Assembly (NCBI GenBank): GCA_938023905.1
Contig: CALJCO010000011.1
Location: 23,544 to 87,543, forward strand
DNA length: 64,000 bases
Reading direction: 5' to 3'
DNA from: an uncultured Collinsella sp.
GTDB taxonomy: Bacteria; Actinomycetota; Coriobacteriia; Coriobacteriales; Coriobacteriaceae
Shown: one piece after another, positions 8,207-64,000 of the stretch
Layout: the number at the start of each line of letters is the position of its first letter
Position numbering within the stretch: the stretch's first letter is position 1
Notes under the pieces: model-generated
What the model was told of the DNA's origin: nothing
The model's input: only the letters and a program-made list of their open reading frames with translations
The model's database searches: none
Position numbers and translations under genes: made by a program

Positions 8207-8232
8207 ATACCCTCTCCAAGCACAATTAAGTC

Positions 8233-8272
8233 TAAAACGGGCTTAAGGGCATTCAACAAGTCCTTAAGCCCG
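8233..8272 (-). terminator. intrinsic terminator (11-bp stem CGGGCTTAAGG/CCTTAAGCCCG + T-tract) after the HAD hydrolase gene
   Basis: Perfect stem followed by TTTTA on the minus strand. Confidence 0.6.
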
Positions 8273-8356
8273 CATTAGCTTAAAGTATGCTAGGTGTCGC
8301 ACCAAAATGTCGGCTATTTACTCATCAGACCCGAAAAACGCGCAACTACCGCGCTC

Positions 8357-16478: not shown

Positions 16479-16528
16479 CGAAACCAGGCCTCCAAAAGAG
16501 CCTGTATCACAGCGCATCCCCATCCCTA

Positions 16529-16572
16529 CAAAAGAGCGGGGGCTGGATTCAAGTCCAGCCCCCGCTCTTTTG
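16529..16572. terminator. bidirectional intrinsic terminator (18-bp perfect stem AAAAGAGCGGGGGCTGGA / TCCAGCCCCCGCTCTTTT)
   Basis: Lies between convergent flavodoxin (+) and ABC ATPase (-) genes. A/T runs on both flanks. Confidence 0.8.
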
Positions 16573-16594
16573 TAACGGCAGTTACATCAACCGG

Positions 16595-19846: not shown

Positions 19847-20713
19847 TTACTGCTGCAACGACCTTAACAGTTTGATTTCAGCCGCATAACCTGCAAGTTC
19901 GTTCGGTGTCTCCAAAATGAATGGCAATGCGCGCAAGCGGCTATTCGATACAATATTCTGTATAACCTGCATACCGCCGCCAAACTCCTCGCTGCCAAGG
20001 TATCCCTTGCCGATGCACTCGTGACGATCTTTATGGGCGCCACAGGGGTTCTTCGAATCGTTGATGTGCACGGCACGCAAGCGCTCGATACCCACCACGC
20101 GGTCGAACTCGTCGAGTACGCCGTCCAGATTATGGATGATGTCGTAGCCGGCATCGCTCACATGGCAGGTGTCCAAACAAACGCCCAGCTTATCGGACAG
20201 CTCTGGACACTTGGCGGCAACGCCCTCGATAATGCACGCCAGCTCTTCAAAGCTACGGCCCACCTCGGTGCCCTTACCCGCCATGGTCTCGAGCAATACC
20301 GTCGTCTGCTGTCCCTCAAACATCACCTGGCACAGCGTGTCGACAATCATCTGAATGCCGGCGTCTGCCCCCTGTCCCACATGCGCGCCGGGATGGAAGT
20401 TGTAGTAGTTGCCGGGCAGTGCTTCCAGACGCTGCAAATCTTCCGCCATAGCCTCCAAGGCAAACTCGCGCGCCCGCTCCTTAGCGGAGCAGGGGTTATA
20501 GGTATACGGGGCATGCGCCACCAGCGGTCCAAAGTCGTTTTGCGCCATAAGCTCGCGCAGAGCCGCCACGTCATCCATGTCAAGGTCTTTTGCCTTGCCA
20601 CCGCGCGGGTTGCGCGTAAAGAACGCAAAGGTATTGGCACCAATGGACAACGCCGTCTCCCCCATTGCCCGATAGCCCTTCGTCGTCGAAAGATGACACC
20701 CGATCGTTAGCAT
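19847..20713 (-). CDS. nfo: deoxyribonuclease IV / endonuclease IV (AP endonuclease family 2)
   Basis: 288 aa, xylose-isomerase-like TIM barrel with the His/Asp/Glu ligand pattern of Nfo. GAGGGGGAG RBS. Confidence 0.85.
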
Positions 20714-20733
20714 CTCCAGCTCCCCCTCATCAG

Positions 20734-20809
20734 TTGCGGTGAAATACGGTCTATTGGTGCCTTATTTTGGCGCAAACAGACCGTATTCCACCGCAAGATA
20801 TAAAAGGGG
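20734..20809 (-). promoter_or_regulatory. conserved 5' leader element of nfo: 19-bp stem (UUGCGGUGGAAUACGGUCU / AGACCGUAUUUCACCGCAA) enclosing a conserved 25-nt loop, preceded by CCCUUUUAUAUC. Homologous to the element at 21893..21967.
   Basis: Perfect inverted repeat ending 5 nt upstream of the RBS. Shares flank, stem base and loop sequence with the second copy. Inner stem differs with compensatory changes. Confidence 0.5.
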
Positions 20810-20857
20810 CATCAGGGGCACGGTCCGCCGAGCCCCCTTGAGCAGCAGCACCGCAGC

Positions 20858-21877
20858 CTAGAGCGTCAAGCGAATCGCATCGATGATCTGCGCGCAGCGC
20901 TGTGTGGCGGCAAGGGGCATGACGGGACTCTCGAGTTTCCCCGCCCGGATGAGCTGAGTCGCATGCGAAGCTTCGCCGTAAAAATCATCGACCTCAAATG
21001 GGGCGTCGATTTCGAGCACTCGACCGTCGGAGTACTTCACATGGGCGAGCTCGGGGCGATGGAGGCGCTCGATTTCCAACGAACCCCGTTCGCAGGCAAT
21101 CGTTAAGCGGCTTTCATATGCTGCTTTGCCGTCGCACACCATATGAATGGGTATACCGCCGACACTCATATGAATCTCATCGGCCCAATCCACGCGGCCG
21201 CCCGATACGTCACGCCAGCGAACTTCACGAGACGAAACATCGCACGCACCCGCAAGCAAATCCTCAAACCACCCGACCGCATAGCAGCCCATGTCATATA
21301 GACAGCCGCCCTGCAACGGATCGAGCAGATAACTCGAAGGGGACTCACCATAATCGAGTTTTTGCACGCTTTCGATCGAGACGATACAGCCGAGCTCGCC
21401 CGACGCAAGCAAGTCCTCCACGCGAGTGCGCATCGGGCAAAACCGATTCTTCATCGCCTCCATAAACAGCACGCCGCACTCGCGAGAGGCGGAGGCAATC
21501 GAGAGAGCCTCTTCCTCACTCAAAACGGCCGGCTTTTCGCACAGCACGGCCTTTCCAGCGCGCAGCGCGCGACAGGCCCAACGCGTATGCATACCATGCG
21601 GAAGAGCCAAGTAGATTGCGTCGACATCGGGGTCGGCAATCAGCGCATCATAAGCCGCATCGCCGCCATCGTCAGCCGTGACATAACTGTGCGCAGCATC
21701 GATCGAAAACGCCCTGAAAACCTCCTCAACATGCGAAGGAGTGCGCCCGGCGGCAGCCACAAGCCGTGCCCTGTCGACCTTCTTGAGCGACGATGCAAAT
21801 CGATGCGAAATGTGCCCAGCGCCCAAAACGCCCCAACGAACCTCACGCAAATCATCACATGAATCCCGATGGCCCAC
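20858..21877 (-). CDS. Gfo/Idh/MocA-family NAD(P)-dependent oxidoreductase
   Basis: ORF 20858..21934. Likely GTG start at 21877 (MGHRDSCDDLREVRWGVLGAGHISHRF Rossmann N-terminus) with AAGGGAG RBS. Confidence 0.75.
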   Translation of the reverse strand: MGHRDSCDDLREVRWGVLGAGHISHRFASSLKKVDRARLVAAAGRTPSHVEEVFRAFSIDAAHSYVTADDGGDAAYDALIADPDVDAIYLALPHGMHTRWACRALRAGKAVLCEKPAVLSEEEALSIASASRECGVLFMEAMKNRFCPMRTRVEDLLASGELGCIVSIESVQKLDYGESPSSYLLDPLQGGCLYDMGCYAVGWFEDLLAGACDVSSREVRWRDVSGGRVDWADEIHMSVGGIPIHMVCDGKAAYESRLTIACERGSLEIERLHRPELAHVKYSDGRVLEIDAPFEVDDFYGEASHATQLIRAGKLESPVMPLAATQRCAQIIDAIRLTL

Positions 21878-21892
21878 GACAGCTCCCTTCAG

Positions 21893-21967
21893 TTGCGACG
21901 AAATAGTTCCTGCTATCGCCCTATTCTGCCGCAAACAGGAACTATTCCATCACAAGATATAAAAGGG
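21893..21967 (-). promoter_or_regulatory. second copy of the conserved leader hairpin (20-bp stem UUGUGAUGGAAUAGUUCCUG / CAGGAACUAUUUCGUCGCAA, conserved loop, CCCUUUUAUAUC flank), upstream of the Gfo/Idh/MocA gene
   Basis: Same architecture and spacing to the RBS as the nfo copy. Compensatory base changes in the inner stem. Confidence 0.5.
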
Positions 21968-23158
21968 TCATGAGGAGCGAGTTTTGCTGAAGACTTTAAG
22001 CGCGGCCGTTACGGGGCCAGGCTGGAAACGTCGGCGCGCGTCGTCGAGACGCTCGGGGATATCGATGTGTTGCGGGCAGTGACGCGCACATTTGCCGCAC
22101 TTGACGCAATTGCTCACGAGCTTGGGCTCGCTCGTGCGCACCGCGCTCGCCGTAAAGTATTGCGACAGCCCCGTAAACCAGCTGTGCGCATAGCTCGCGT
22201 TGTAAGCGGCAAAGCAGCCGGGAATGTTAATACCCTTGGGACATGGCATGCAGTAGCCGCATCCCGTGCAGGGCACGCGATTCGATTTTTCAAACTCCGC
22301 CAGCACACGTGCGATGGTATCGAGCTGCTCTGTCGTCATCGAATTCGGCAGTGCGCGATCCGCCAATGCCGCGTTCTCGTCCACCTGTGCGGTATCGGTC
22401 ATGCCCGAAAGCAGCATCGTGACCTGAGGATGGTTCCACACCCACGAAAGTCCCCAGGCGGCAGGAGTGCGCAAATGCGGGTCACGGGCGCCATCGAGCA
22501 CGGCGCGGGCCCGCGGAGGCAGCTTGCCCGCCAGGCGTCCACCCAAAAGCGGCTCCATCACAAACACCGCGAGCCCGCGCTCCGCAGCCGCCATGAGTCC
22601 CGCCGTTCCCGCTTGGTAGCGCTCTCCAGCGTAGTTGTACTGGATCTGGCAAAAATCCCAGTCATACGCGTCAAGCATCGTGAGGAAGTCCGCGGCGCTG
22701 CCGTGGTACGAAAAACCTATCTGGCGAATACGCCCCGCAGCCTTTTGGTGCGCAATCCAGTCCTCGATGCCCAACGCCACCACGCGCTCCCACTGGGCGG
22801 GCGAGGTGATGTTGTGCATAAGGTAGTAGTCAATATAGTCGGTCCGCAAACGGTGCAGCTGCTCGTCAAAAAAGCGGTCGAAATCCTCCGCACATTTGCA
22901 CGAAGCGTGCGGCAACTTAGTCGCCAGCAACACCCGGTCGCGCAGCCCCAAGCGCTCAAGTGAGGCGCCCACGCACACCTCGTTACCGGGATAGAGATAC
23001 GCGGTATCCAGATAATTAATCCCCTGCTCCACCGCACGGGAAATGATGGCATCGGATGTCTTCGCATCGGGGTGTCCCGGCGCACCGGGAAATCTCATGC
23101 AGCCCAGACCCAGAGCGGATATTCGGTTACCACTTTTGGGGTCAACGCGGTATTGCAC
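21968..23158 (-). CDS. aldo/keto reductase fused to a C-terminal 2x[4Fe-4S] ferredoxin domain
   Basis: ORF 21968..23275. Probable GTG start at 23158 (MQYRVDPKSGNRISALGLGCMRF, canonical AKR N-terminus) 4 nt after AAAGGAGGGG. C-terminal CTGCGYCMPCP...CVKCGKCARHCP clusters. Confidence 0.75.
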   Translation of the reverse strand: MQYRVDPKSGNRISALGLGCMRFPGAPGHPDAKTSDAIISRAVEQGINYLDTAYLYPGNEVCVGASLERLGLRDRVLLATKLPHASCKCAEDFDRFFDEQLHRLRTDYIDYYLMHNITSPAQWERVVALGIEDWIAHQKAAGRIRQIGFSYHGSAADFLTMLDAYDWDFCQIQYNYAGERYQAGTAGLMAAAERGLAVFVMEPLLGGRLAGKLPPRARAVLDGARDPHLRTPAAWGLSWVWNHPQVTMLLSGMTDTAQVDENAALADRALPNSMTTEQLDTIARVLAEFEKSNRVPCTGCGYCMPCPKGINIPGCFAAYNASYAHSWFTGLSQYFTASAVRTSEPKLVSNCVKCGKCARHCPQHIDIPERLDDARRRFQPGPVTAALKVFSKTRSS

Positions 23159-23321
23159 GGCCCCTCCTTTCGCCATCAGCACCCCGGCAAGACGAAACAC
23201 AATGGTCACGCGGCCGAAACATCGTAGAATCGCAATCGAGAACGTATCGTAACGCAGCAGAAATCGAGCTGTCACGGCACCGCTTTAACATCAGCAAAAA
23301 GCCCGATGAAAGGAGCCGCCC

Positions 23322-24092: not shown

Positions 24093-24209
24093 GTTCCCAT
24101 GCGTTTGTTCTTCTAAATACGGCCATCCGGTGCACGCGACATGGCCCGGCGGCATACAATCCATCAGGCGCCCCATACGCGGGCGCCTTTTTATGGGGAG
24201 ATGATTCAC

Positions 24210-32703: not shown

Positions 32704-32786
32704 ATGCTTTCCCCCAAAGCACCTCATCAACAGTAAGACGGACTTTGAATAGTTGCCTCTCAAAGTCCGTCTTACTCATACGCACG

Positions 32787-41394: not shown

Positions 41395-41469
41395 TGGTGG
41401 GCGTTAGAAGATTTGAACTTCTGACCTCTTCCGTGTCAGGGAAGCGCTCTCCCCCTGAGCTAAACGCCC
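41395..41469 (-). tRNA. tRNA-Val (anticodon GAC), CCA-encoded
   Basis: GGGCGTTTAGCTCAGGGGGAGAGCGCTTCCCTGACACGGAAGAGGTCAGAAGTTCAAATCTTCTAACGCCCACCA. Cloverleaf by inspection. Confidence 0.9.
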
Positions 41470-41472
41470 AAA

Positions 41473-41548
41473 TGGAGCGGACAACGGGGCTCGAACCCGC
41501 GACCCCAACCTTGGCAAGGTTGTGCTCTACCAACTGAGCCATGTCCGC
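41473..41548 (-). tRNA. tRNA-Gly (anticodon GCC), copy 1, CCA-encoded
   Basis: GCGGACATGGCTCAGTTGGTAGAGCACAACCTTGCCAAGGTTGGGGTCGCGGGTTCGAGCCCCGTTGTCCGCTCCA. 3 nt from tRNA-Val. Confidence 0.9.
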
Positions 41549-41590
41549 TTACGGGGATTAATCTTACGTGATGCCCGCATCCTATGCAAG

Positions 41591-41608
41591 AACTTTTTTT
41601 GAAAAGTT
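41591..41608 (-). promoter_or_regulatory. A/T palindrome (AACTTTTCAAAAAAAGTT on coding strand) abutting -35 TTGCAT / -10 TAAGAT promoter of the tRNA-Gly/Val unit
   Basis: Shared with the two other tRNA promoters in the window (43941..43964, 47417..47433). Confidence 0.45.
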
Positions 41609-41689
41609 TTGCGACGCCCTCGCGAACCTCGCGAAGACATCAGCCACCACGGAAAGCGCAGGCAAACGCAAACTCGCCGCAAGAGGCTC

Positions 41690-43423
41690 CTATATCTCAC
41701 CGAGCATGATCCAGGCGGAGCTGTCCTGCGCGAGCCTGCCGTCTGCAAGCGGTGATGAGGTGAGCAGGACCCTGCCCGCCGGCAGCTCCACGGGTACTGC
41801 ACCGAAGTTCGTCACACACGCCCATCCGTTGTCGCGGCGATAGGCGATGACGCCGCCCTCAGCGCCCTCGGCACCATCCGCAAGGCCGGTGCGCCCGTCA
41901 AGATCGAGCCACGCAAGATCGTTGGCGCACCTGCGCAGCTTGCGCCGCAGCCAGAGGGCGTCACGATAGAGCGCAAGCATCGATGTCGGGTCCGCTTCTT
42001 CCCTATCGGCAGCGTAATCGGAAAACCATGCAGGCTGCGGCAGATGGGGCGCTGCATCGGCGTTGGCCGGTGAAAACCCAAACGATCCGCCCTGCGCGGG
42101 ATCGTCCGCTGCCACCCACGGCAGGGGCACACGGCAGCCGTCGCGCCCCTTCTCGCGCTTCGGTCCGCGCGTATTGGTCGCAGTAGGATCTTCGAGTGCA
42201 TCCCACGGGATATCAGCCACCTCAAAAAGGCCGAGCTCCTCACCCTGATACACGTATGCCGAGCCCGGAAGCGCCAGCTCAAGCAAAAGGGCCGCCCGCG
42301 CGCGGCGCTCGCCGAGTTCACGGTCCTCGTCATAAGACGACCCGTCGCGTAAGAGCCAGTCGAGCGCAATCTGATGGTAGCGCGTCGCCTTGATTTGCGG
42401 CAGGGCATAGCGTGTCGCCACGCGCGGCACGTCATGGTTGGAGAGTACCCAGGTCGAGGCGGAATCGGATTCGATGGCCGCCTTCAAGCCCTCCTCGATT
42501 GCAGCGTGCATGTCATCATAGGTCCAAGTGGCCTTAGCGAACTCAAAGTTGAATGTCTGGCCAAGCTCGCTGGGGCGCGCGTAGAGATACTGGCGCTCGG
42601 GCAGCACCCACGCCTCGGCAACGGCGCTGCGCGGTGGATTATAGCGGTCGAACACGCGGCGCCACTCGCGATAGATCTCGTGGACCTCGTTGCGGTCCCA
42701 CAGCGGATGGGTGCCGTCGTCAACCATGTCATCGCCCTCGGCGAGATGCCACCGGTCGAGGTCATCGCGGTCGAGATCCTTGGCAAGACCGTGCGCCACA
42801 TCAATGCGAAAGCCATCGACGCCTCGATCGCTCCAAAATGTCAGGACGTCGCAAAAGAACGCGTGAACCTCGGGGCATGACCAGTCAAAGTCCGGCTGCT
42901 CGGGCGTAAACATGTGCAGATACCACTGACCGTCCGCAACACGCGTCCAGGCGGGGCCGCCAAAGTTGGCATTCCAATTGGTGGGAGGCAGCTCGCCGTG
43001 CTCGCCGCGACCATCGCGGAAGATATAACGGGCGCGCTCGGGCGATCCGGGACCGGCGGCAAGAGCGGCTTTGAACCAGGGGTGCTGGTTGGATGAATGG
43101 TTAGGCACGATGTCGACGATGACCTTGATGCCGCGCGCGTGAGCCGCAGCGATCATGTCATCGAAGTCGTCAAGCGAGCCGAGACGTGGGTCGACATCGC
43201 AGTAGTCCGCCACATCATAGCCACCATCGACAAGAGGCGATGGGTAAAACGGGCTCAGCCAGATGGCCTCGATACCCAGCTGCTCAAGATAGTCCATCTG
43301 CTGGGTAATGCCCGCGATATCGCCCAGACCCGAACCAGTCGAATCCTTAAACGAGCGCGGGTAGATCTGATAGATCGCGGCGTCGGACATCCATGAGCGC
43401 GAAGAAGACTTTTCTGTAGCCAT
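41690..43423 (-). CDS. glycoside hydrolase family 13 alpha-glucosidase (oligo-1,6-glucosidase / trehalose-6-phosphate hydrolase-like)
   Basis: ORF 41690..43513. ATG at 43423 (MATEKSSSRSWMSDAAIYQIYPRSF...) with AAGGGAGA RBS. GH13 regions GFRIDVAHG, EAWV, SNHD present. Confidence 0.85.
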   Translation of the reverse strand: MATEKSSSRSWMSDAAIYQIYPRSFKDSTGSGLGDIAGITQQMDYLEQLGIEAIWLSPFYPSPLVDGGYDVADYCDVDPRLGSLDDFDDMIAAAHARGIKVIVDIVPNHSSNQHPWFKAALAAGPGSPERARYIFRDGRGEHGELPPTNWNANFGGPAWTRVADGQWYLHMFTPEQPDFDWSCPEVHAFFCDVLTFWSDRGVDGFRIDVAHGLAKDLDRDDLDRWHLAEGDDMVDDGTHPLWDRNEVHEIYREWRRVFDRYNPPRSAVAEAWVLPERQYLYARPSELGQTFNFEFAKATWTYDDMHAAIEEGLKAAIESDSASTWVLSNHDVPRVATRYALPQIKATRYHQIALDWLLRDGSSYDEDRELGERRARAALLLELALPGSAYVYQGEELGLFEVADIPWDALEDPTATNTRGPKREKGRDGCRVPLPWVAADDPAQGGSFGFSPANADAAPHLPQPAWFSDYAADREEADPTSMLALYRDALWLRRKLRRCANDLAWLDLDGRTGLADGAEGAEGGVIAYRRDNGWACVTNFGAVPVELPAGRVLLTSSPLADGRLAQDSSAWIMLGEI

Positions 43424-43562
43424 GGGGCGTATCTCCCTTGCAACGAGGTTATGCGGGATGCCCACGATGATACGCCCAAAGTGGACATTCGCGGCAAACA
43501 ACGCCACAGCCACGACCCAAAACGCTCGCCCCCCTCGGGTTCGAGCCCAGGCGATGGGTACG

Positions 43563-43595
43563 AAAAAGCCCGGCTACCGTAGTAGTCGGGCTGCT
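43563..43595 (-). terminator. intrinsic terminator after tRNA-Gly copy 2 (AGCCCG stem + T5)
   Basis: CAGCCCGACTACTACGGTAGCCGGGCTTTTTCG on the minus strand. Confidence 0.5.
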
Positions 43596-43600
43596 GCGTT

Positions 43601-43676
43601 TGGAGCGGACAACGGGGCTCGAACCCGCGACCCCAACCTTGGCAAGGTTGTGCTCTACCAACTGAGCCATGTCCGC
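43601..43676 (-). tRNA. tRNA-Gly (GCC), copy 2 (identical to copy 1)
   Basis: Identical 76-nt sequence. Confidence 0.9.
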
Positions 43677-43718
43677 ATATGTAAAACAAAACGGGCGCCG
43701 GAGCGCCCGGATGTTGCC

Positions 43719-43792
43719 TGGAGGCGAAGCCCGGATTCGAACCGGGGGTAAAGGCTTTGCAGGCCTCTGCCTTACCACTTGGCCACTTCGCC
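43719..43792 (-). tRNA. tRNA-Cys (anticodon GCA), CCA-encoded
   Basis: GGCGAAGTGGCCAAGTGGTAAGGCAGAGGCCTGCAAAGCCTTTACCCCCGGTTCGAATCCGGGCTTCGCCTCCA. Confidence 0.9.
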
Positions 43793-43826
43793 GAAAAAGG
43801 ACCGCCTAAACGGTCCGGAAATGCAA

Positions 43827-43902
43827 TGGAGCGGACAACGGGGCTCGAACCCGCGACCCCAACCTTGGCAAGGTTGTGCTCTACCAACTGAGCCATGTCC
43901 GC
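43827..43902 (-). tRNA. tRNA-Gly (GCC), copy 3 (identical)
   Basis: Identical 76-nt sequence. Promoter TTGCGT-N17-TAAATT with the A/T palindrome at 43941..43964. Confidence 0.9.
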
Positions 43903-47237: not shown

Positions 47238-47327
47238 TGGTGTCGGAGGCGGGACTTGAACCCGCATGACCAAAAAGCGGTCACTAGCACCTCAAGCTAG
47301 CGCGTCTGCCAATTCCGCCACTCCGAC
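47238..47327 (-). tRNA. tRNA-Leu (anticodon GAG), long variable arm, CCA-encoded
   Basis: GTCGGAGTGGCGGAATTGGCAGACGCGCTAGCTTGAGGTGCTAGTGACCGCTTTTTGGTCATGCGGGTTCAAGTCCCGCCTCCGACACCA (90 nt). Promoter TTGCAC-N18-TATTAT at 47385..47414. Confidence 0.9.
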
Positions 47328-47471: not shown

Positions 47472-47596
47472 GGGCAGGAATGAGGTCGCTTTCCAACGCG
47501 TCCTCGGGCATGCGGCATTATTTTGATCCGCGCTTCGCGCTACAAAATAATGCCGCCCCCTGCGGAATGCGTTGGAAAGCGACCTCATTCCTGCCC
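47472..47596 (+). ncRNA. candidate structured sRNA, 6S-RNA-like architecture (27-bp closing stem, 12/12-nt central bubble GTCCTCGGGCAT / CCCCTGCGGAAT, 14-bp terminal stem, 17-nt loop); strand assignment tentative
   Basis: Long imperfect hairpin with no ORF. Its bubble sequences are shared (as reverse complement) with the element at 47776..47904, while the stems differ but stay paired. Followed by tandem GC hairpins with T-rich tails at 47658..47712. Confidence 0.3.
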
Positions 47597-63122: not shown

Positions 63123-63293
63123 GTCGCTCTCCTTAGGAGATAAAAAACAACTACAGGAAATGAAGGCGGTGTTATCGCCGCAACTTAGTAAAGGTTTCCC
63201 AGGTGCCCGAGGTTGGGGTGAAAGTGGTCGGGCGTTGACCTAATGGGTCAAGCCCGACCACTTGAGCCCCAAGATCGGGTGCCTGGGGAAGCT

Positions 63294-64000
63294 TTACAGG
63301 AGACCGTTGTCCTGAAGGACCTTCTTAATCGCCTCGACGTTCTCGCCGGTCATGGCCTTCACCGGGCGCGGCATGGTCGGGCTGTCGAAGATACCCATGA
63401 GGTTCATAGCGGTCTTGAAGGCGCCGACGCCACCGGCATAGCCCTGGACGCCCGAGGTGACATCCCAGATGTGCGAAATCTCATTGAGGCGATCCTGCTC
63501 GGCCTTGACGGTAGCCCAGTCACCAGCCTGAGCGGCCTTCCATTGACGCACGTAGCCCTCAGGCTCAACGTTGGCGAGGCCCGGGACGGAACCGTCGGCA
63601 CCACCGAGGTAAGCGCCGTCGACAACAACCTCGTGACCGGTGAGGATGCTCATCGGATGGCCGTTCTTCTCGTTCTCCTGAACGAGGTAGCGGAACGAGA
63701 TGTCATCACCCGAGGAATCCTTGACGCCGGCCAGAACGCCCTCGGCACCGAGCTTGGCAAGGAGCTTCCAGGGGAGCTTGGTGTGGACGCACACGGGGAT
63801 GTCGTAAGCGAAGATGGGCAGGTCGAGTTCCTCATGCAGGATGCGGAAGTGCTCCTCGACCTCGGTCATGCCCTGCAGGGCATAGAACGGGCAGGTGGCG
63901 ACGAGGGCATCGGCGCCCAGCTCCTGAGCGACCTTACCGTGCTCGATCATGCGCTCGGTCTCGGTGTCGATGATGCCGACCAGAACGGGAACGCGGTGGT
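63294..64000 (-). CDS. nanA: N-acetylneuraminate lyase / DapA-family aldolase, 5' part outside window
   Basis: Frame continues upstream of the listed ORF (…HRVPVLVGIIDTETERMIEHGKVAQELGADALVATCPFY…). DapA/NAL family. Adjacent to nanK and nanE. Confidence 0.7.
   Translation of the reverse strand, partial: HRVPVLVGIIDTETERMIEHGKVAQELGADALVATCPFYALQGMTEVEEHFRILHEELDLPIFAYDIPVCVHTKLPWKLLAKLGAEGVLAGVKDSSGDDISFRYLVQENEKNGHPMSILTGHEVVVDGAYLGGADGSVPGLANVEPEGYVRQWKAAQAGDWATVKAEQDRLNEISHIWDVTSGVQGYAGGVGAFKTAMNLMGIFDSPTMPRPVKAMTGENVEAIKKVLQDNGLL

Follow-up and report, generated by a model that had tools for sequence, protein, structure and literature searches.

The long hairpin located immediately upstream of the deoxyribonuclease IV gene (nfo) in the 64-kb stretch of DNA analysed here, which we call the window, belongs to a Collinsella-restricted, low-copy family of dispersed palindromic repeats. 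A preliminary description of this DNA had proposed that it was a conserved structured leader of the nfo messenger, with a second copy preceding a neighbouring Gfo/Idh/MocA oxidoreductase gene (hereafter Gfo). The observation itself is confirmed and the leader interpretation is partly supported; as a gene-specific 5' leader, the element does not stand, since the same hairpin occurs at at least 14 unrelated intergenic sites, many of them 3' of genes or between convergent genes. We think it reasonably probable that it is a REP/ERIC-like dispersed palindrome that is co-transcribed in the messenger of an aldo/keto reductase (AKR), Gfo and nfo, and that combines the roles of intercistronic hairpin and recombination substrate.

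Judging from the nfo protein and its contigs, the window comes from the Collinsella aerofaciens group of the human gut. All genes of the nfo neighbourhood, as well as both elements, are on the minus strand, in the order AKR (with a 4Fe-4S dicluster domain; 21968..23209), Gfo (20858..21877, a 339-aa gene model with one element copy on each side) and nfo (19847..20713; TIGR00587, 271 bits versus a cut-off of 130), followed after a 148-nt spacer by an amino-acid-type ABC transporter. Copy 1 lies between Gfo and nfo, its stem being 61 nt past the Gfo stop codon and 20 nt before the nfo ATG (20713-20711). Its 63-nt core hairpin (20734..20796) consists of a 13-bp stem base (TTGCGGTGGAATA / TATTTCACCGCAA), an inner stem (CGGTCTG / TAGACCG) and a partly paired tip. 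On its 5' side it has the flank CCCCTTTTATATC (20797-20809) and, more broadly, an outer flank common to copy 2 (GCCCCTGATGCCCCTTTTATATC, 20797..20819); the 3' outer flank (CTGATGAGGGGGAGCTGGAG, 20714..20733) holds the Shine-Dalgarno (SD) sequence of nfo, GGGGGAG (20720-20726). Copy 2 lies between AKR and Gfo, its stem 12 nt past the AKR stop codon and 15 nt before the GTG start of Gfo (21877-21875). Its core, also of 63 nt (21893..21955), has the stem base TTGTGATGGAATA / TATTTCGTCGCAA, with three G-U pairs, and the inner stem GTTCCTG / CAGGAAC. Its 5' flank CCCTTTTATATC (21956-21967) is abutted by the AKR stop codon TGA (21968-21970), its 5' outer flank (21956..21978) overlaps the last AKR codons together with this stop, and its 3' outer flank CTGAAGGGAGCTGTC (21878..21892) holds the Gfo SD. 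The two copies form an ungapped 90-nt alignment (20730-20819 versus 21889-21978) with 74% identity. The 15-mer CCCTTTTATATCTTG occurs exactly twice in the window (5 occurrences when up to three mismatches are allowed, against 0.57 expected), and neither pattern searches nor our covariance model R1 detected any further copy in it. At 63176-63186, CCGCAACTTAG has the look of a relic arm; it has no partner arm and we take it as a chance occurrence.

Both window copies fold strongly on the minus (sense) strand, with energies of -56.6 kcal/mol for copy 1 and -43.7 kcal/mol for copy 2 and z-scores of -8.2 and -5.4, respectively, against dinucleotide shuffles, which, together with the 90-nt repeat, confirms the strong hairpin originally reported before nfo and its second copy before Gfo. 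All arm mismatches in both copies are of the G-U type when read on the minus strand, which explains the poorer folding of the opposite strand (-49.9 and -25.5 kcal/mol). Likewise, the R1 scores are 81.1 (minus strand) and 65.5 bits (plus strand) for copy 1, and 72.9 and 47.4 bits for copy 2. The details of the structure needed revision. The 19-bp stem thought to be perfect is indeed a hairpin stem, but it comprises 18 Watson-Crick pairs and one G-U and runs on to 22 pairs, whereas the supposed 25-nt loop is mostly paired, with an apical loop of just 7 nt. The 22 continuous pairs of the predicted fold exceed the ~20 bp of double-stranded RNA expected of an RNase III substrate. In the inner stem, four consecutive pairs differ on both sides between the two copies (CGGT/ACCG versus GTTC/GAAC), so that pairing is kept, as had been noticed. 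The motif had not been recognized as any known one, and Rfam 15 agrees: no family reached its gathering score, and at E-values up to 10 merely microRNA models appeared, far below threshold. Two minor features recur in both copies. The tip (20760-20777 and 21919-21936, minus strand) directly repeats the arm motif, TTGCGGCAGAATA compared with the arm TTGCGGTGGAATA, and TTGCGGC or GCCGCAA is found near the tip, in either orientation, in other family members. In addition, both copies conserve an ATG in register, 16 nt 5' of the stem (minus strand, 20812-20798 and 21971-21957), and that of copy 2 overlaps the AKR stop codon (ATGA). In strains with TATAAC replacing TATATC, the ATG opens a four-codon mini open reading frame, ATG CCC CTT TTA TAA, that ends at the stem.

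The existence of a family became evident when genomes, one per species, were searched for the stem base with free interior (CTTGNGNTGGAATA-N30-50-TATTNCNNCGCAA), a scan that matched at least 120 stretches. All were labelled Collinsella, Coriobacteriaceae or 'uncultured bacterium', bar one contig from a 'Treponemataceae' metagenome-assembled genome (MAG). This contig (L087, CAVCKO010000014.1) has the Collinsella arrangement aminopeptidase-element-yaaA and is probably a mis-binned Collinsella contig. The matches listed, the window and the loci collected earlier add up to 167 instances, 43 of them before nfo, 50 before Gfo and 74 elsewhere. When the instances away from nfo and Gfo among the matches listed were clustered by their flanks, they fell into 23 contexts, all intergenic, which we judge to represent ~14 independent sites. 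The additional instances in related genomes for which the preliminary description called do, therefore, exist, on at least 14 independent intergenic Collinsella sites. In an alignment of 42 distinct copies (A1), the 13-bp stem base is near-invariant, TTGCGGTGGAATA / TATT(C/T)CACCGCAA (TATTYCACCGCAA being the 3' arm of the stem base that the scan found), and it is flanked by AA(C)...(C)TT with a C.C mismatch. The inner stem occurs in three or four discrete complementary forms (GTTC/GAAC, CGGT/ACCG, GGGA/TCCC), and the tip is variable and mostly paired, with no conserved unpaired core. Pairing is retained in 90.5% of the cells of the family alignment versus 27-49% with slid partners, and changes on both sides affect 73 cells compared with 41 in shuffles, a value of 73 being reached by 0 of 500 shuffles. 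The core measures 63 nt, the unit with its outer arms ~87-107 nt, and the stems 22-28 bp. Lone half-sites are nearly absent, and neither an nhmmer profile hidden Markov model nor model R1 retrieved diverged members in ~1.4 Mb of Collinsella DNA.

Copy number is low, with 2 copies in the 64-kb window and 2 copies in 331 kb of an annotated C. aerofaciens record. A blastn search of the full 900-kb record gave 6 places, probably three elements counted on both strands, and we estimate roughly 5-15 copies per Collinsella genome. No phage sequence matched, and the sole 'plasmid' match is this 900-kb record. It is listed in PLSDB as 'plasmid 6' of C. aerofaciens TSDC17.2-1.1 (NZ_OY725717.1, 899,693 bp; our loci L132-L138) and is evidently a piece of chromosome, coding for recA, rho, rpsB, tsf, dnaJ, lexA, ribosomal proteins and aminoacyl-tRNA ligases. 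In the searchable literature, we did not find the arm sequence in a bacterial context nor a description of palindromic repeats in Coriobacteriia. The family thus appears to be undescribed both there and in Rfam. It may be among the unnamed Collinsella candidates included in the catalogue of Fremin and Bhatt 2021 (PMC8040213), the accessible portion of which lacks the sequences with which the overlap could be checked.

The elements occupy a well-defined genomic niche. Gene calls at the different sites are our own and match the public calls at the nfo locus. At nearly all sites among the matches listed, the stem starts 11-28 nt past the stop codon of a gene reading into it, the neighbour on the other side is co-directional or convergent, and 0 of the ~14 sites lies between divergent genes. 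The RefSeq annotation of L132 shows one copy 15 nt past the DegV stop codon and also 15 nt past that of the convergent YafQ gene, and another copy 28 nt past the stop codon of a hypothetical protein. In ~93-nt spacers between convergent genes, a family element is the sole feature. That divergent spacers are so strictly avoided, and that the stems follow stop codons so closely, suggests selection linked to transcripts and speaks against a role in DNA alone. The C.C junction, together with a G.T in the arm, gives the elements a polarity of their own. Taking the nearest stop codon as reference, they are in sense orientation at ~9 sites and in antisense at 5, and at the yaaA site the orientation is either one, depending on the species. 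Their orientation has no GC-skew (replication-strand) bias, with 10 site categories positive and 6 negative, although such a bias would be expected if HUH enzymes mobilized the hairpins. The neighbours form a mixed set, including M18 aminopeptidase, YaaA, xth, an AddA/UvrD-type helicase-nuclease, DnaE, DegV, DinJ-YafQ, a PepV-like dipeptidase, gluconate 5-dehydrogenase, KDPG aldolase and a GntR regulator. The suggested tie to redox or repair genes is not supported by such a set, all the more so as many sites have nothing downstream to regulate. Several repair-type genes nevertheless have a copy beside them, namely xth (L039, 1089-1904), nfo (window, 19847-20713), yaaA (L024, 254-1060) and the AddA-like helicase together with dnaE (L069). 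The adjacency to both apurinic/apyrimidinic (AP) endonuclease genes (nfo and xth), to YaaA, to the AddA/UvrD-PDDEXK helicase-nuclease and to DnaE is striking, but it was noticed post hoc and the positions are inconsistently 5' or 3' of these genes.

The nfo site was also approached independently of the element, through 80 metagenome loci picked by nfo protein similarity alone. In all 77 that had enough upstream sequence, the hairpin lies 20-21 nt before the nfo ATG. The inner stem is CGGTCTG in 56 of these protein-selected loci and GTTCCTG in 17. Since both variants segregate at this same site, the 'compensatory' difference between the two window copies is a swap of ready-made variants. What had been called covariation thus holds as retained pairing and fails as stepwise compensatory change at the locus, being an exchange among a few discrete family variants. 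Both copies are kept at the same two places in other strains, and the spacer from the Gfo stop codon to copy 1 differs completely among strains. A protein search and a metagenome scan for distant orthologues of the nfo locus gave relatives at >=93% identity alone. Along a diversity profile of 69 distinct orthologous sequences from 81 loci (the region corresponding to window positions 20820-21877 and on through nfo), the Gfo 3' end and the following spacer are hypervariable, and from ~20 nt upstream of copy 1 through nfo the sequences are near-uniform, synonymous sites included. The change from one regime to the other is sharp and marks a recombination boundary at the element, ~20 nt before copy 1 begins.

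Where genes have been gained or lost, the boundaries fall at copies of the element. In a Collinsella MAG contig (L088, CALJDJ010000060.1), the AKR 3' end joins the nfo start via a single element (433-496), and Gfo is absent exactly between the positions of the two copies, which points either to a deletion by recombination between copies or to an ancestral state. A gene for a 994-aa defence-type TOTE primase-helicase of the AEP class lies between two inverted copies in two loci (L022, 3134-6760; L126, 2057-5682), and one copy and no TOTE gene are found between DegV and YafQ in two others (L013 and L132). The yaaA gene is placed between two copies that are direct in some species and inverted in others, and a GntR/FCD regulator gene is found inside an inverted pair (the bracketed yaaA/GntR-type loci are L031, 369-1370; L042, 1100-2102; L017, 6702-7705; and L091, 4223-5132). 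Between the helicase gene and dnaE, L045 has two copies of different inner-stem types in tandem, 29 nt apart (629-784), and other species have at this site a single copy of either type.

How might such an element work at the nfo locus? The spacers are read into by the upstream gene, and the element would accordingly be transcribed here within the AKR-Gfo-nfo messenger. No promoter-like site was predicted in the copy 1 and copy 2 spacers before nfo and Gfo, where the room between stem and start codon is just 20 and 15 nt, respectively. Together with the avoidance of divergent spacers and the 22 continuous pairs in each copy, this lack of promoter space before both genes supports a co-transcribed hairpin, and the poor conservation among strains of the spacer upstream of copy 1 points the same way. 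By analogy with better-studied repeats, the 22-26-bp hairpin in the mRNA would be a barrier to 3' exonucleases, a site of RNase III-type cleavage, or both, and the polycistronic AKR-Gfo-nfo message would in this way be split into segments of unlike stability. In minimum free energy (MFE) folds, the C-rich 5' outer arm is predicted to pair with the SD of the next gene (GGGGGAG or GGGAG), which may dampen or couple translation. In copy 2, the anti-SD arm directly adjoins the AKR stop codon, and ribosomes that terminate there could open the arm. At the DNA level, the copies would, we infer, serve as recombination substrates.

Various observations weigh against this proposal. Transcription through the hairpin and any processing of it are both inferred. 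The computed masking of the SD is not robust, being modestly better than controls for nfo (unpaired probability of 0.15 versus 0.27-0.35) and no better for Gfo (0.39 versus 0.20-0.57), and translational control is for this reason possible but not supported. The nfo coding sequence, third codon positions included, is about as conserved as the element, so that conservation at the nfo locus is by itself no proof of selection on the latter. The asymmetry between G-U and A-C mismatches tracks the polarity of the element and not the direction of the neighbouring genes; thus, among hairpins that are read into from the other strand alone, G-U events number 8 on the strand of the element's own polarity and 1 on the strand being read. 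Because polarity is independent of transcription, the wobble pattern of the window copies is weak evidence for RNA-level selection, and we rejected the asymmetry as a proof of it at the family level. Classical REP families reach far higher copy numbers. Finally, a purely structural role leaves the invariant 13 bp of the stem across sites and species unexplained, which makes a sequence-specific partner likely, be it a transposase, a recombinase or an RNA-binding protein.

Polarity and invariant ends are at home in an explanation that confines the element to the DNA level, as a mobile or recombination-prone palindrome whose place in the nfo leader would be incidental and without function in RNA. 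It could be either a REP-like hairpin that a Y1/HUH transposase handles in single-stranded form or a miniature inverted-repeat transposable element (MITE) ending in inverted repeats of 13-16 bp. Invariant ends with a variable interior are as in transposase-recognized termini, the invariant 13 bp form terminal inverted repeats as in a MITE and extend to AA(C)...(C)TT, and the polarity given by the C.C beside the stem and the G.T in the arm is independent of transcription. The flipped orientation at the yaaA site in some species, the tandem copies in L045 and the genes that lie between two copies and come and go with them also speak in its favour, as does the presence in C. aerofaciens of a gene annotated as 'transposase' (L137, 21755-22567, minus strand) for a 270-aa protein of RAYT-like architecture, with an IS200-like Y1 domain (Y1_Tnp) and a C-terminal helix-turn-helix. 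IS21, IS30 and IS1249 copies are also present in L132-L137, where model R1 found no half-elements. Still, we regard this explanation as unlikely. The Y1_Tnp gene has no flanking family hairpins (0.33 Mb of that C. aerofaciens genome searched). No target-site duplication is visible, the flanks AAC...CTT being inverted and not direct, and no empty orthologous site was encountered, the element being present in 77 of 77 nfo loci and 18 of 18 yaaA loci, the latter mostly picked by the element itself. Its orientation is unbiased with respect to GC skew, and carriage by phages or genuine plasmids was not observed, the sole 'plasmid' match being a chromosome piece. Going further, the 13-bp stem base might be recognized by a dedicated factor (a hairpin-binding RNA protein, a recombinase or an HUH enzyme), the ~10 sites forming both a post-transcriptional damage/oxidative-stress circuit (nfo, xth, YaaA, AddA-like, DnaE) and a set of cassette exchange points (Gfo, yaaA, GntR, TOTE) similar to attC sites outside integrons in an actinobacterium; we give this idea a small chance.

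The remaining explanations assign the element a conventional regulatory function, and we find them improbable. A cis-regulatory RNA leader, riboswitch-like or protein-binding, that hides the SD of nfo and Gfo would agree with the hairpin ending 15-20 nt before the start codons, the pairing of the C-rich 5' flank with GGGGGAG or GGGAG in the predicted MFE fold, the recurrence of C-rich 5' and G-rich 3' flanks preceding a start codon at several other sites, and the translational coupling that the position of the AKR stop codon makes possible for copy 2. However, the element is also found between convergent genes and at 3' ends with no downstream gene (contexts 3, 4, 5, 10 and 12), the G-rich 3' flank itself recurring where no gene follows (context 5). 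It precedes yaaA in both orientations in different species, contradicting a constant sense 5' position, its conserved part is the paired stem base and not a binding pocket at the variable tip, and the SD-masking figures for Gfo and nfo lend it little. Equally improbable is a family of bidirectional, possibly factor-assisted terminators ending the upstream transcript. The position 11-28 nt past stop codons, the status of sole feature in ~93-nt convergent spacers and the A's 5' and T's 3' of the stem, with T-runs after some copies (e.g., CTTCCTTTTTTGG before yaaA), would suit such a function. By contrast, there is no U-tract after the stem in the window copies (3' flanks CTGATGAGGGG; CTTAGAAATC, CTGAAGGGAG) nor in most others, and a terminator scan omitted the element. 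A stem of 22-28 bp is far beyond those of intrinsic terminators (~5-14 bp), canonical T-run terminators are present in the same window, the invariance of the stem sequence would be left unexplained, and efficient termination would leave Gfo and nfo promoterless. Very improbable, in our opinion, is a double-stranded DNA operator for a damage or oxidative-stress transcription factor. It would account for the invariant 13-bp half-sites and for neighbours such as nfo, xth, yaaA, the AddA-like helicase and dnaE, but 37 bp separate the half-sites, a protein that binds the duplex would have no use for complementary changes within the inner stem, the element lies 3' of xth and the helicase yet 5' of nfo, and there is no promoter overlap. 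A LexA (SOS) operator was rejected, as the Cheo-type box CGAAC-N4-GTTCG seen before Collinsella lexA and recA is absent from the element. DnaA boxes, parS and DNA-uptake sequences with paired half-sites were considered and matched poorly, the near-absence of lone half-sites also speaking against the last of these.

The nearest known counterparts of the element are REP/BIME, ERIC/IRU and Correia elements, which share its element class and genomic niche and differ in size, copy number, tags and sequence. As in the REP/BIME of Enterobacteria and Pseudomonas, we are dealing with extragenic imperfect palindromes in co-directional or convergent spacers, rarely divergent ones, often just past stop codons, in both orientations and with a sequence kept within a taxon. 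A transcribed REP reportedly acts as a 3' hairpin that stabilizes the upstream mRNA, as Newbury et al. are said to have found for malE-malF in 1987, and stop-codon-proximal REPs were reportedly the subject of work by Liang, Rudd and Deutscher in 2015. Unlike REP/BIME, the Collinsella family has a core of 63 nt instead of 20-40 nt and ~10 copies instead of hundreds, and lacks a GTAG-type tag, BIME clustering and any sequence similarity; a RAYT gene flanked by its copies was not found in the 0.33 Mb of C. aerofaciens genome searched. The ERIC/IRU of Enterobacteria and the Correia/NEMIS of Neisseria are longer palindromes (~100-150 nt) in transcribed intergenic regions. Their long RNA hairpins are RNase III substrates, influence mRNA stability and can supply or mask the expression signals of neighbouring genes. 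The Collinsella element resembles them in its stem of at least 22 bp and in its G-rich outer arm, which doubles as the SD of nfo and Gfo. It differs by the lack of homology and a far lower copy number; Correia elements, moreover, possess IHF sites as well as a TA target duplication, and in the Collinsella family no duplication was seen. In architecture only, it is also comparable to the RNase III intercistronic hairpins of phage T7 early mRNA and the E. coli adhE leader, with a long near-perfect stem between cistrons or before an occluded SD. With such an arrangement, cleavage would free the SD and leave a protective 3' hairpin on the upstream fragment.

Integron attC sites provide another comparison. 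They are also imperfect palindromes (57-141 nt) placed right after a stop codon, with conserved ends, a variable centre and strand-marking mismatches, and the genes that they bracket are lost or gained as units. By contrast, the Collinsella ends are TAAC...CTTA and not RYYYAAC...GTTRRRY, the copies are single or paired and scattered, without forming arrays, they occur in both orientations and bracket core genes, and no integrase gene was detected in the window neighbourhood of the element. We rejected the identification as attC site because, among the matches listed, the junction is C...C in 94 copies, G...G in 65 and the attC-like C...G in just 2, and because inverted pairs are common.

These repeats have implications for the search for regulatory RNAs. 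The ~10 strong hairpins of a Collinsella genome resemble riboswitch or leader candidates, yet they form a repeat family, so that comparative RNA-discovery pipelines will keep flagging them, the 'covariation' there being exchange between variants. Collinsella, a gut genus of great diversity that is discussed in medicine, may owe part of its strain diversity to these copies, which mark places of gene deletion, replacement and insertion. If the hairpins process or stabilize mRNA, they would set relative expression in gene rows such as AKR-Gfo-nfo.

Other structured sequences of the window are outside the family. Canonical hairpin plus T-run terminators occur elsewhere in it, for instance at 16527-16574 and 24166-24188. 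The first of them, between an ABC ATPase gene and the gene that follows, is a perfect palindrome of 21 bp (TACAAAAGAGCGGGGGCTGGA) that has an A-run on its 5' side and a T-run on its 3' side; it has the appearance of a canonical bidirectional intrinsic terminator, an indication that Collinsella uses ordinary terminators. Two other long hairpins are a palindrome of 125 nt whose arms measure 61 nt, close to a tRNA gene (47472-47596), and one of 110 nt between co-directional genes (63188-63297), and two shorter ones lie at 8216-8294 and 32732-32776. The window also contains six minus-strand tRNA genes, at 41398-43902 and 47241-47327, five of which are clustered.

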